From a bacterium (GTDB lineage Bacteria; UBA10199; 2-02-FULL-44-16; JAAZCA01), in NCBI GenBank assembly GCA_963674695.2, contig CAXXGI010000001.1, positions 1-64,000 on the forward strand: a DNA stretch of 64,000 bases, written 5' to 3'. Of the stretch, positions 7,231 through 63,373 are shown piece after piece. The notes beneath the pieces are model-generated. The model saw only the letters and a list, made by a program, of their open reading frames with translations, ran no database searches and was not told where the DNA came from. Both the position numbers and the translations under genes were made by a program. Positions within the stretch are counted from its first letter, which is position 1, and the number at the start of each line of letters is the position of its first letter.

Positions 7231-9136
<1,906 letters not shown>

Positions 9137-12521: not shown

Positions 12522-12590
12522 GTCATTCCCGCGAACGCGGGAATCTCGATTCTCACGAAACACCGAGATCCCCGTTTTCACGGGGATGAC
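12522..12590. repeat. REP-like palindromic element
   Basis: GTCATTCCCGCGAACGCGGGAATCTCG...CGAGATCCCCGTTTTCACGGGGATGAC. Confidence 0.85.
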
Positions 12591-17288: not shown

Positions 17289-17316
17289 TTATCGGCAGGT
17301 TAAGGCGATAAGTTGC
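17289..17316 (-). promoter_or_regulatory. Recurrent sigma28-like promoter motif (GCAACTT-N13-GCCGATAA)
   Basis: Perfect GCCGATAA -10 about 40 nt upstream of the ATG at 17251. Confidence 0.7.
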
Positions 17317-17351
17317 TCCTTTTTTCCACTATTTTAACTCCTTGATAACAC

Positions 17352-17381
17352 TTGACAATACCTCATATCGGATGCTAGTTG
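17352..17381 (+). promoter_or_regulatory. Sigma70-type promoter for the tRNA locus
   Basis: TTGACA (17352-17357), N18, TG-extended TAGTTG. Confidence 0.5.
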
Positions 17382-17472
17382 CCCCCACTCGAAGCGATTA
17401 GGGTCGGCAGTTTAACCTGGCGAAAACGCGACGTGTTTCGAGTATTTTCAGAAGCCATCCAGACGAACACAT

Positions 17473-17543
17473 TCAGGAGTCATCCAACGGTAGGATGCCG
17501 GTCTCTGGAACCGGTCATCGGGGTTCGAATCCCTGCTCCTGAG
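17473..17543 (+). tRNA. tRNA-Gln(CTG), intact copy; CCA not encoded
   Basis: Cloverleaf: TCAGGAG/CTCCTGA acceptor, ATCC/GGAT D-stem, CCGGT-CT CTG GA-ACCGG anticodon arm, CGGGG-TTCGAAT-CCCTG T-arm. Confidence 0.96.
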
Positions 17544-17544
17544 C

Positions 17545-17583
17545 AAAGAGAAAGGGTCGCCTTAACGGCGGCCCTTTTTCTTT
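17545..17583 (+). terminator. Intrinsic terminator after tRNA-Gln; the stem extends into the tRNA 3' end
   Basis: AAAGGGTCGCC-TTAAC-GGCGGCCCTTTTTCTTT. Confidence 0.75.
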
Positions 17584-17620
17584 GCTCAGGAGCAGGGTGA
17601 GACACCGATCGGGGTTCGAA

Positions 17621-17828
17621 CCGCAGCGAGATCCTAGCCGAAGGCGGATGTCGCACGCTACAAACAAAAGTGACGAGCGCGGGCGAGGAACACATCACCT
17701 TATAGGTCAGAACGAAGTGACAACCGCAGCGAGATCCTAGCCCGAAGGGCGGATCGAGACCGCTACAAACAGAAGTGACGAGCGCGAGCAAGGAACAAAT
17801 AACCCTATAGGTCAGAACGAAGTGACAA
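17621..17828 (+). repeat. Two tandem ~104-nt structured units inserted in the loop of an orphan tRNA T-arm
   Basis: Units 17621-17723 and 17724-17828 (CCGCAGCGAGATCCTAGCC...GAACGAAGTGACAA); the flanks ATCGGGGTTCGAA and TCCCTGC rejoin into the tRNA-Gln T-arm. Confidence 0.9.
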
Positions 17829-17877
17829 TCCCTGCCCGCTCTTTTCAGGGATTCGAAGTGGGAAATTGAAAAATTAT

Positions 17878-18026
17878 TCAGGAGTCATCCAACGGTAGGA
17901 TGCCGGTCTCTGGAACCGGTCATCGGGGTTCGACGACCTTCCGAAAAGCAGTTCGCCGAACAGGCGAACAGTAAAATGATGAAGTGTCGGCGAGTGCGTG
18001 CGCGAGCCGACGTCCCTGCTCCTGAG
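17878..18026 (+). tRNA. Second tRNA-Gln(CTG) copy with a ~78-nt insertion in the T-loop (interrupted gene or pseudo-tRNA)
   Basis: 17878-17933 identical to copy 1 up to GGTTCGA; 17934-18012 is foreign sequence; 18013-18026 TCCCTGCTCCTGAG resumes the tRNA. Confidence 0.85.
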
Positions 18027-18030
18027 CAAC

Positions 18031-18060
18031 AAGAAGGGCCTCCGCAAGGGGGCCCTTCTC
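18031..18060 (+). terminator. Hairpin / likely terminator after the second tRNA copy
   Basis: AGAAGGGCCTCC-GCAA-GGGGGCCCTTCT. Confidence 0.65.
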
Positions 18061-18136
18061 GTTGTTCTGCAGTATGGGGTGAGATGACCTTACCCAAAAT
18101 TGCCCTCCATCACACACTGTGATAACATTTACGCTT

Positions 18137-18679
18137 ATGAAACGGATAGGAACACTTCTCGTCCTCATCGCACTCATCCTGAGCGTTTCCTGCGGAGGAT
18201 CAAGCGGCAGCCCTACACCATCGACGGACGATGGTGATTCGGGCGACAGCGCATCGGACGACACCGTCGGCACTGAGGAGAGCCGTGCCTATACCTGCTC
18301 GTCTTGCTATGAAGACGATACAACGACCACAACAGAAATAGGCGTGGTGATTGCAGGCTTGTGTACACGCTTCACGCAATGCGACGACAATACCTCTCTC
18401 GATCCATGCCTGTACTACGCCAACTCAGACGCAACACTCATTACGGCCACAGGTGCCGATGCATCAACCTACGCTACCTTTGAAGCGCTCCAGGCAGCCA
18501 TCGATGCAGGTGATGTCACCCAAACCTTAGCCGACTACGCCGATTGCAACAATGCGATGCCGTCCATAGCCTGTTCATCTTTTACAGATGCGGGCTCCTA
18601 CAATGAAAGTACGGGAGTGTATTCGGGATTCACTTCGGTGTTACCTGCAGCCTGCACAAACATATATACGGATTCTTAA
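18137..18679 (+). CDS. Cys-rich lipoprotein of unknown function
   Basis: MKRIGTLLVLIALILSVSC lipoprotein-type signal, S/D/T-rich linker, several Cys. Confidence 0.8.
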   Translation: MKRIGTLLVLIALILSVSCGGSSGSPTPSTDDGDSGDSASDDTVGTEESRAYTCSSCYEDDTTTTTEIGVVIAGLCTRFTQCDDNTSLDPCLYYANSDATLITATGADASTYATFEALQAAIDAGDVTQTLADYADCNNAMPSIACSSFTDAGSYNESTGVYSGFTSVLPAACTNIYTDS

Positions 18680-33725: not shown

Positions 33726-33821
33726 GTCATTCCCGCGAAGGCGGGAATCTCGATTTTTCAAGCACAGCGAGATTCCCGCCGGAGTTTACCCTCGAATGAT
33801 TTAATCGGGGGCGGGAATGAC
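33726..33821. repeat. REP-like palindromic element with enlarged second loop
   Basis: GTCATTCCCGCGAAGGCGGGAATCTCG...GCGGGAATGAC; nearly identical to 63278-63373. Confidence 0.9.
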
Positions 33822-37171: not shown

Positions 37172-37244
37172 GTCATCCCCGCGAAAGCGGGGATCTCGAT
37201 GGACCATGACAATCGAGATTCCCGCTTACCCCCGCGGGAATGAC
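37172..37244. repeat. REP-like palindromic element
   Basis: GTCATCCCCGCGAAAGCGGGGATCTCGAT...ATCGAGATTCCCGC...GCGGGAATGAC. Confidence 0.9.
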
Positions 37245-61924: not shown

Positions 61925-62018
61925 GTCATTCCCGCGAAGGCAGCCTGCCCGCCGGTTGTGTGGCGGGGGAATCTCGCTTGTAATGACCAATCGAGATCCC
62001 CGCTTTCGCGGGGATGAC
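61925..62018. repeat. REP-like palindromic element with nested module
   Basis: GTCATTCCCGCGAAGGC[AGCCTGCCCGCC...GGCGG]GGGAATCTCG...CGAGATCCCCGCTTTCGCGGGGATGAC. Confidence 0.88.
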
Positions 62019-63277: not shown

Positions 63278-63373
63278 GTCATTCCCGCGAAGGCGGGAAT
63301 CTCGATTTTTCAAGCACGTCGAGATTCCCGCTGGAGCCTGCCCTCGAATGATTGAATCGGGGGCGGGAATGAC
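63278..63373. repeat. REP-like palindromic element
   Basis: Near-identical to 33726-33821, including about 15 nt of left flank. Confidence 0.9.

Follow-up and report, generated by a model that had tools for sequence, protein, structure and literature searches.

Short structured repeat units in the T-loop of spare tRNA 3'-end copies in a UBA10199 bacterium

Why should the T-arm of one tRNA occur three times on one strand within 600 bp, and be split in two of them? The question is raised by the tRNA-Gln locus of a bacterium of the UBA10199 lineage, in a stretch of 64,000 nucleotides that was analysed whole (positions 1 to 64,000 of contig CAXXGI010000001.1, assembly GCA_963674695.2; here, the window). 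The original prediction, drawn from the letters alone, offered two answers: a family of miniature non-autonomous elements aimed at the T-loop, or a removable segment resembling a mini-intron. The analysis described here favours, with confidence about evenly balanced, a modified form of the first: the inserts would be lineage-specific, protein-less hairpin repeats (about 60-125 nt) that behave as non-autonomous mobile or amplifying DNA in redundant copies of tRNA 3' ends. Their preferred site is the T-loop, after C56 or A58, of a redundant 3'-end copy just downstream of a working tRNA gene. The intact upstream tRNA supplies function.

The layout of the locus is as had been described, every statement on its sequence being borne out. 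One tRNA-Gln gene, copy 1, is intact, and is the only tRNA that ARAGORN calls in the whole window. Downstream, an orphan T-arm is split by two tandem units of a 104-nt type (84% identity over 88 nt, spacing 105). Further on, copy 2 of the tRNA is split in its T-loop by a different insert that carries both of the hairpins originally named and measures 79 nt rather than about 78; a terminator-like hairpin of its own follows. Both halves of copy 2 match copy 1 exactly, the 5' match (58/58) running from 17876 to 17933 against 17471 to 17528, that is, 2 nt upstream plus the tRNA up to A58. Two parts had been overlooked: an inverted copy of the tRNA 3' end behind terminator 1, and an inverted piece of T-arm at 17846-17857. 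The absence of a recombinase from the window is borne out, since the five tyrosine-recombinase and four Y1-transposase matches of the genome all lie outside it. Misassembly is unlikely because independent short-read contigs bridge all junctions: Logan contigs span 17499-17905, 17904-18004, 17983-18200, 17876-18004 and 17607-18017 with 0-1 differences. The three public runs behind them belong to two samples from a single study, which is probably the assembly's own source.

The inserts belong to repeat families tied to tRNA genes throughout this genome (3.03 Mb; G000 below, with G001 and so on for the other genomes compared). BLAST with the 79-nt insert found, besides partial copies, two of full length, at C2:841293 (90% identity) and at C2:364509 (83%); the 104-nt units found C2:658759-659239 (three copies), C2:841408 and C1:352595. 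Each of these copies has a tRNA gene just upstream. R1, a covariance model built for the 79-nt unit, matches the genome 22 times at E<=0.001. For 21 of the matches, a tRNA gene, a tRNA with an intron or the 3' fragment of a tRNA lies upstream at a distance of up to about 800 nt; the remaining one (C2:855028) has a His-like 3'-end remnant behind the unit. The 21 fall at nine loci: Gln, His, Ser-GCT, Glu-TTC, Gly-CCC, Met (on C3), Arg-TCT, Asn, and the 3' fragment of a tRNA-Met that a genomic island left behind. The Ser-GGA locus holds three units of the 104-nt type. As a control, another abundant repeat has 502 end motifs genome-wide, of which 11 lie within 1.5 kb of a tRNA.

The notion of miniature T-loop elements therefore needs amendment rather than replacement. 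Repeat families, genome- and family-wide, do occupy T-loops of at least nine other tRNAs, but their hosts are redundant 3'-end copies, not working genes, and each unit is embedded in a larger sense-antisense-sense module that had escaped notice. All 10 unit loci of this genome still have the same tRNA as an unbroken gene or part of a gene, and a 5' exon is present at one of the 10 (Gln copy 2). The tRNA set is complete without copy 2, every anticodon being served by an intact gene. The sole tRNA that seems missing, Asn, is uncalled by ARAGORN because of a true group I intron in its anticodon loop. This tRNA-Asn(GTT) gene, the only Asn gene of the genome, lies outside the window at L006:1707-2068 (minus strand; G000:C1:924071-924432; RF00028, 71.4 bits). 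Its exons include CTGACTGT and TAATCAG, it ends GGAGCCA, and it is itself followed by a 79-nt-unit module.

The module has a set order: tRNA; terminator 1; inverted tRNA 3' end; GC-rich hairpin; GTTC or GTTCGA; a single unit or a tandem array; direct 3'-end copy; terminator 2. The inverted copy covers the acceptor 3' strand, the T-stem 3' strand and the T-loop, stops opposite G53, and is often degenerate; it reads GGACTCGAAC where the T-loop is TTCGAGT, and GGATTCGAAC where the T-loop is TTCGAAT. The stem sequence of the GC hairpin varies by locus while its pairing is always kept (that is, it covaries), and one or two bulged bases separate it from the GTTC or GTTCGA. The direct copy consists of the T-stem and acceptor 3' strands of the cognate tRNA, usually with the second terminator behind it. 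Its identity to the cognate tRNA 3' end extends over 13-16 nt in six of the seven modules compared (Gln, 15/15; His, 16/16; Ser, 14/14; Glu, 13/13; Gly, 16/17; Met, 15/15), Arg having 9/10. In G007 and G012, this copy even tracks each genome's own tRNA-Gly variant.

Two subtypes of junction occur. In subtype i, the unit stands exactly between C56 and R57, with zero loss or duplication (Gly in four genomes, Gln in G010, Met in G021); in subtype ii, it follows A58 (GTTCGA^), and positions 59-60 are replaced. Whole modules form tandem arrays (3 x 171 nt at Met, 3 x 193 nt at Ser-GGA), and so do bare, near-identical units (four at Met, five at Gly). All 10 loci of this genome with an inverted 3'-end copy also hold a unit, a sign that the module may come into being, or survive, as a whole.

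Another insert, of about 110 nt, was seen in second copies of tRNA-Lys(CTT) and tRNA-His (L046, on G011:C86, and L077, a metagenome contig). It contains a GAGGATCCTC hairpin, sits at the border of anticodon stem and variable loop, and coexists in G011 with a T-loop unit. Other loops of spare tRNA copies have thus been colonised as well.

Tandem arrays are one of several signs of repeat dynamics at the DNA level; the others are clustering by genome, varied or empty sites, and nested, inverted or broken copies. Units cluster by genome and not by locus: six units from six tRNA loci of this genome group together, as do the Gly and Met units of G008 (99/96 support). The exception is the Asn unit of this genome, which groups with a metagenomic Asn unit. 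Copies within a genome are more alike than copies at the same locus in other genera, and across genera the Gln site holds different unit types or, in G003, none. The Asn unit bears an insertion in hairpin P3; the Arg-TCT unit is split by another repeat element; the 104-nt type is also found in inverted orientation; and nested and decayed copies are present. Together with conserved end motifs and strand-specific hairpins, these dynamics point to the profile of non-autonomous elements of the repetitive extragenic palindrome (REP) or miniature inverted-repeat transposable element (MITE) kind, by analogy.

What is repeated is a defined structure. From its 5' end, the 79-nt unit comprises a conserved CGACCTTC, the P2 hairpin (GTTCGCC/GGCGAAC), a conserved stretch TAATGMTGAAGTG, and the P3 hairpin. 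Statistics were taken over 51 distinct copies (alignment A3) that had been fitted to the model, a procedure that favours pairing and affects strand asymmetry less. Paired cells amount to 98.7%, against 35-49% with the partners slid; double changes occur in 13 of 20 pairs; and none of 500 shuffles reached any observed measure. The covariation is carried by P2 and P3. Within P3 are an internal loop of tandem G.A and a U.G pair that 47 of 51 copies retain; elsewhere, G.U exceeds A.C by 12 to 2. The conserved U.G and the excess of G.U over A.C place the structure on the tRNA-sense strand, be it RNA or single-stranded DNA.

A further helix predicted by RNAalifold, P1 (CCUUC/GAAG), was not counted, having zero covariation and uncompensated breaks. 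P2 is missing from a short form of the unit (61-65 nt), and the consensus fold of the 104-nt unit is weak (-5.66 kcal/mol; double changes in 4 of 20 pairs). When the inserts were run against Rfam 15, no family matched the units: the threshold was reached by tRNA alone, and the rest were chance hairpin matches to microRNA models.

P3 is preceded by T[A/C]TAAT-G-M-T-GAAGTG, in which a hexamer resembling a -10 element ends 3 nt before GAAGTG. Over the 51 copies it is a perfect TATAAT in 12, agrees at five or more of six positions in 34, and has A at position 2 in 22. In short-form units, the hexamer stands 18 nt after a TCGACG that is itself formed at the join of T-loop and unit. An internal promoter built of these parts (TCGACG, 18 nt, TATAAT) was rejected: it fits short-form units only, and the position-2 A has the frequency just given.

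The family is lineage-specific. Among the relatives from the same family, R1 found the unit in 11 of 12; throughout the class, 15 of 93 genomes have it, this one included: family f1, 11/12; f3, 1/1; f4, 1/4; f15, 1/3 (weak, and not tRNA-linked); and the other 20 families, 0/72. In two sister families, one genome each has the unit, once more behind tRNA-Glu-CTC and tRNA-Met. The occupied tRNAs recur from genus to genus: Gly-CCC in four genomes, Glu-TTC in three, Glu-CTC in four, Met in at least four, and Asn and Arg-TCT in two each. Of 20 loci from a metagenome scan, seven are chance matches in coding DNA and 13 hold true units, almost every one of them within this module, behind a tRNA for His, Asn, Gly or Met. 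The full unit pattern occurs in named genomes at five loci, in four metagenome-assembled genomes that coincide with the family members G001, G003, G004 and G008. Ten of 24 contexts inspected in relatives are not tRNA-linked; in these, the unit lies in the loop of other hairpin repeats or within larger inverted-repeat elements. Viral contigs contain one locus with the pattern of the unit's 3' half, a chance match in GC-rich coding DNA, and none with the end pattern of the 104-nt unit; the His module matches nothing in 72,556 plasmid and 50,697 phage records.

The Gln site itself can be followed through the relatives. In two genomes from other genera, G001 and G007, the intact gene has an interrupted Gln copy directly upstream of it, made up of a 5' part, a 104-type unit, then the T-stem 3' strand (T3) and a small hairpin. 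A module with a third unit type stands behind the intact Gln gene of G002, G008 and G004; behind that of G010 there is a fourth type, placed exactly at GGTTC^GAATCC.

The window fits this series (Table 1). Copy 1, behind its conserved upstream motif, resembles the single Gln gene of G003 and G004, and is taken to be the gene at the ancestral position because of that motif, which is probably part of the tRNA-Gln promoter region; a consensus promoter scan made no promoter call there. The orphan T-arm would be an older and more decayed module of the same kind as that of copy 2, and putatively orthologous to the interrupted copies of the two other genera: the region 17608-17877 appears to correspond to their arrangement, copy 2 then being a downstream gene copy with a 79-nt unit. 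The small hairpin behind its 3' half, whose far arm is the inverted T-arm piece CAGGGATTCGAA, recurs in G001 and G007. Copy 2 is most likely a disabled duplicate gene, inactivated by the 79-nt unit. Its 5' part scores 25.6 bits in Rfam, below the threshold; it is preceded by a strong terminator; and the consensus scan found no promoter-like site of its own.

Table 1. Parts of the tRNA-Gln locus, in window positions.
Feature	Positions	Strand	Basis
Conserved upstream motif CTTGATAAcACTTGACAATAcc	17341..17363	+	By-eye match upstream of tRNA-Gln in G003 (L023) and G004 (L027)
Intact tRNA-Gln(CTG), copy 1	17473..17544	+	ARAGORN; Rfam RF00005, 56.9 bits against a threshold of 29
Long palindrome: tRNA 3' end, terminator 1, inverted 3'-end copy	17531..17597	+	31-nt arms, 94% complementary, 5-nt gap
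Antisense arm (AS) GCTCAGGAGCAGGG, inverted tRNA 3' end right after terminator 1	17584-17597	+	Within the palindrome
Orphan T-arm, 5' half ATCGGGGTTCGAA	17608..17620	+	Direct repeat; CGGGGTTCGAA is 17610-17620
104-nt-type unit 1 (103 nt), begins CCGCAG, terminates GAAGTGACAA	17621..17723	+	Repeat comparison
104-nt-type unit 2 (105 nt), tandem to unit 1	17724..17828	+	Repeat comparison
Orphan T-arm, 3' half TCCCTGC (17829-17835), then small hairpin	17829..17857	+	Inverted-repeat search
tRNA-Gln copy 2, 5' part (positions 1-58, ending GGTTCGA)	17878..17933	+	Identity to copy 1
79-nt unit in the T-loop of copy 2	17934..18012	+	Covariance model R1, 95.9 bits
tRNA-Gln copy 2, 3' part (T-stem 3' strand, acceptor 3' strand, discriminator)	18013..18027	+	15/15 against copy 1
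Terminator 2, like terminator 1 but non-identical	18032..18059	+	12 pairs, then T-rich tail

How might such modules arise? Units would spread or be homogenised at the DNA level, with the hairpins, as single-stranded DNA or RNA, possibly being the feature recognised. The sense-antisense-sense frame may have arisen by snap-back copying at hairpins, for which the terminator and the GC hairpin would be the turning points; the resulting topology would be that of a tandem inversion duplication or a rolling-hairpin concatemer.

Several observations weigh against mobile repeats of this kind. No empty module was seen among the 10 loci, which argues against a simple history in which the tRNA end was duplicated first and the unit inserted later. 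The covarying GC hairpin, placed exactly where both arms of the palindrome end at G53, lacks an explanation. In copies that are not tRNA-linked the left flank varies, so that no single target word is defined. Replication-strand bias is absent (by local GC skew, six modules are co-oriented and five opposed), which is a misfit to single-strand transposition of the IS200/IS605 type. Finally, retention at the same tRNAs across genera and families, conserved unit ends, tolerance of G.U, and co-orientation with the tRNA would equally fit a transcribed RNA.

Nor was a partner enzyme found for the units. TnpB is absent from this genome, and no IS91-type Y2 transposase scores above threshold in it. Y2 genes are present in three of 12 family relatives and in G014, with ends that are not unit-like; around 13 Y2 loci from 11 genomes of the class, there is no R1 match below E=0.97. 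RAYT-like genes occur in 13 of 13 family genomes, with a unit nearby at one of 30 fetched loci. The flanks of the four Y1 open reading frames (ORFs) of this genome hold other repeats, not units, and G005 has nine Y1 matches and 0 units.

Those four RAYT-like Y1 transposase ORFs encode 241-257 aa (L098, L117, G000:C3:279738 and C3:474227). Three are close paralogues flanked by GCCGCCATTTGCTGCAGC hairpins, and the fourth is flanked by repeats of the CAACCACCACGAACGGCCTTCG type. The abundant repeat that served as control is likewise a hairpin repeat, with ends GTCATCCCCGC and GCGGGAATGAC, and may be a REPIN-like partner of RAYT-like genes. Fourteen of its 502 end motifs are in the window (9023-9105, 12522-12580, 15585, 21147, 33726-33811, 37172-37234, 61925-62008 and 63278-63363), and one copy interrupts the 79-nt unit at tRNA-Arg-TCT. 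The only reverse-transcriptase match of the genome, at L089 (G000:C2:706163-709429), is weak and spread over two frames (31.7 + 39.1 bits). It lies beside a DUF559 endonuclease-like gene, has no link to a unit, and is probably a decayed retroelement.

The strongest competitor takes the modules for genes or cis-elements of a structured non-coding RNA, made up of the GC hairpin, the unit, the tRNA 3'-end copy and terminator 2, and transcribed by read-through from the strong promoter of the tRNA or from a promoter of its own. This is possible, although on balance unlikely. The tRNA-derived ends would serve processing or stability, the inverted and direct copies pairing as an acceptor/T minihelix, the type of substrate used by RNase P, RNase Z and the CCA-adding enzyme; or they would mimic a tRNA 3' end. 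Such an RNA would account for the sense-strand structure with its conserved U.G and excess of G.U; the strong covariation in P2, P3 and the GC hairpin; the co-orientation of every tRNA-linked unit with its tRNA; the lack of replication-strand bias; the recurrence of the same tRNAs over genera and families; and a 3'-end copy that is near-identical to the cognate tRNA and usually followed by a terminator.

Two further points cut both ways. The -10-like hexamer before GAAGTG would suit a promoter, but its position-2 A is present in fewer than half of the copies, and P2 lies upstream of it yet covaries, so that P2 would itself need to be transcribed; read-through from the tRNA promoter, for its part, would have to pass terminator 1. 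Similarly, in the minimum-energy folds of Ser-GCT and Glu-TTC the module is closed by pairing between its inverted and direct copies, but the closing stem is not formed in the Asn and Met352 folds and is partial in His, and the antisense arm is degenerate in several modules. The pattern of copies also tells against an RNA gene: units cluster by genome and not by locus; there are identical tandem arrays, nested and inverted copies outside tRNA loci, and decaying broken copies; and the Gln site of G003 is empty.

A more adventurous proposal is rather unlikely in our judgement. An undescribed site-specific process would act on the tRNA T-arm, with breaks at 52/53 and at 56/57 or 58/59; it would rebuild the 3' end as a palindrome around the GC hairpin and install protein-less cargo. 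The modules would then represent a new class of target-regenerating, T-loop-homing mini-elements, whose RNA, predicted to consist of a hairpin scaffold, 15-17 nt identical to the tRNA 3' end, and a terminator, may act as a mimic of the tRNA end or as a guide.

It is improbable that the modules are miniature or decayed integrative elements, moved by a tyrosine integrase acting in trans, with attL in the gene, attR downstream, and the unit as an arm beside attR. The classical signature is admittedly there: direct repeats of a tRNA 3' segment around some 150-550 bp, with the gene restored upstream. The available part of one report (PMC9897764) describes integration as leaving one complete and one partial tRNA copy. 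In G001, moreover, the changes that separate the interrupted from the intact Gln copy come in pairs, as though the two had separate origins, and the genome of the window has three integrases besides two XerC/D-like genes (together its five PF00589 matches), with one real island at tRNA-Met. However, no module contains an integrase gene or pseudogene, nor any ORF of such size. The unit splits the T-arm at the would-be attR, and the GC hairpin replaces the T-arm 5' side, which leaves no contiguous core site. A single element family would require matched sites at 10 or more tRNAs; the inverted copy and GC hairpin go unaccounted for; integrase arm sites would not be expected to covary in the manner of RNA, with tolerance of G.U; and similar DNA is lacking from the plasmid, phage and viral sets searched.

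The island offers a view of what an integrase does leave. It spans about 15.6 kb (L031, G000:C1:335001-353500), from tRNA-Met at C1:336679-336752 to its 3' fragment at C1:352300-352355, which begins in the anticodon stem, and its integrase lies at C1:336942-337397 on the minus strand. It is a classical integrase scar, and an old unit module stands just beyond it.

Archaeal tRNA introns in the T-loop exist. A group I intron in the T-loop of tmRNA is likewise described in the accessible part of 10.1101/2020.01.27.920355. Even with these precedents, and although both exon-like halves are identical to copy 1, T-loop nucleotides 54-58 are intact on the 5' side and the widespread enzyme RtcB is encoded (372 bits), it is highly improbable that the 79-nt insert is a mini-intron excised from a copy-2 transcript, for example by self-cleavage and RtcB ligation, so as to yield a functional tRNA-Gln: every split copy has an intact counterpart, nine of 10 unit loci in this genome have no 5' exon, copy 2 stands behind a strong terminator with no promoter-like site before it, removal of 79 nt would leave a 6-nt T-loop, RF00028 has no match in 17300-18200 (E<=10) or at five other module loci (E<=0.01) and no other ribozyme matched, and a search for the splicing endonuclease EndA (PF01974) gave 0 matches in this genome, which is rated 100% complete, whereas the control search finds it in four archaea.

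What follows depends in part on which reading holds. If the units are mobile, they are selfish DNA living at biology's most conserved loop without death of the host, by using or creating spare tRNA tails. If they are RNAs, they form an unrecognised class in which a perfect tRNA 3'-end copy stands beside a conserved scaffold. In either case, the modules explain 'extra' or 'broken' tRNA calls in this lineage and break short-read assemblies at tRNA loci, and the unit itself, with its 51 distinct copies and covarying pairs, is a new and well-supported structured motif.

Comparison with known systems finds several partial likenesses. Tyrosine integrases include classes whose sublocation in the tRNA gene is the T-loop, and cis-mobilisable mini-elements flanked by att sites (CIMEs) are known. 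Integration of this type shares with the modules the intact gene, the downstream direct repeat of its 3' part, and a breakpoint in the T-loop. The modules differ in their small size, the want of an integrase, the split T-arm, the inverted copy with its GC hairpin, and the occupation of more than 10 tRNAs by one unit family.

REP elements and bacterial interspersed mosaic elements with their RAYTs, together with the palindromes of IS200/IS605, resemble the units as short, non-coding, strand-specific hairpin repeats that have conserved ends and tolerate G.T or G.U. They further share clusters and arrays, a position after genes, and restriction to a lineage. The units differ in strict placement at T-loop copies, in being missing from the flanks of RAYT-like genes, in showing no strand bias, and in greater length, with two to three helices. 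The units also recall IS91, ISCR and Helitrons in having subterminal palindromes, in forming head-to-tail arrays and, in subtype i (GGTTC^unit^GAATCC), in a join right after 5'-GTTC without target duplication; the IS91-family target and end features are given in the available part of bioRxiv 10.1101/2025.01.24.634351. Against this likeness stand the lack of a Y2 transposase here, the dissimilar ends of the relatives' Y2 elements, the subtype ii join after GTTCGA, and the varied left flanks away from tRNAs.

Introns of tRNAs, whether group I or archaeal bulge-helix-bulge, are short structured inserts at a precise loop site, and related ones may be found in several tRNAs. Transposition of archaeal introns is known. 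The units, by contrast, have no catalytic core and no splicing endonuclease to serve them, mostly lack a 5' exon, and lie alongside an intact gene; the true group I intron in the tRNA-Asn of this genome is wholly unlike them.

Tandem inversion duplication and the rolling-hairpin concatemer are known mechanisms, and they share with the module its sense-antisense-sense order and hairpins at both junctions. In Escherichia coli, repeats downstream of tyrT carry the tRNA 3' end, as the modules do. The module recurs at many tRNAs and across genera, and neither its breakpoint (G53) nor its cargo changes; this argues that it is not a one-off accident of replication.

A literature search at abstract level, without supplementary tables, found no description in bacteria of tRNA 3'-end copies split at the T-loop. 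Related repeats may be among the 'multicopy nucleotide sequences' of Geobacter, to judge from part of that account (PMC2996986). Small structured non-coding repeats are a known kind; what is new is their place, in the T-loop of copies of tRNA tails, the palindromic frame that holds them, and the motif itself.

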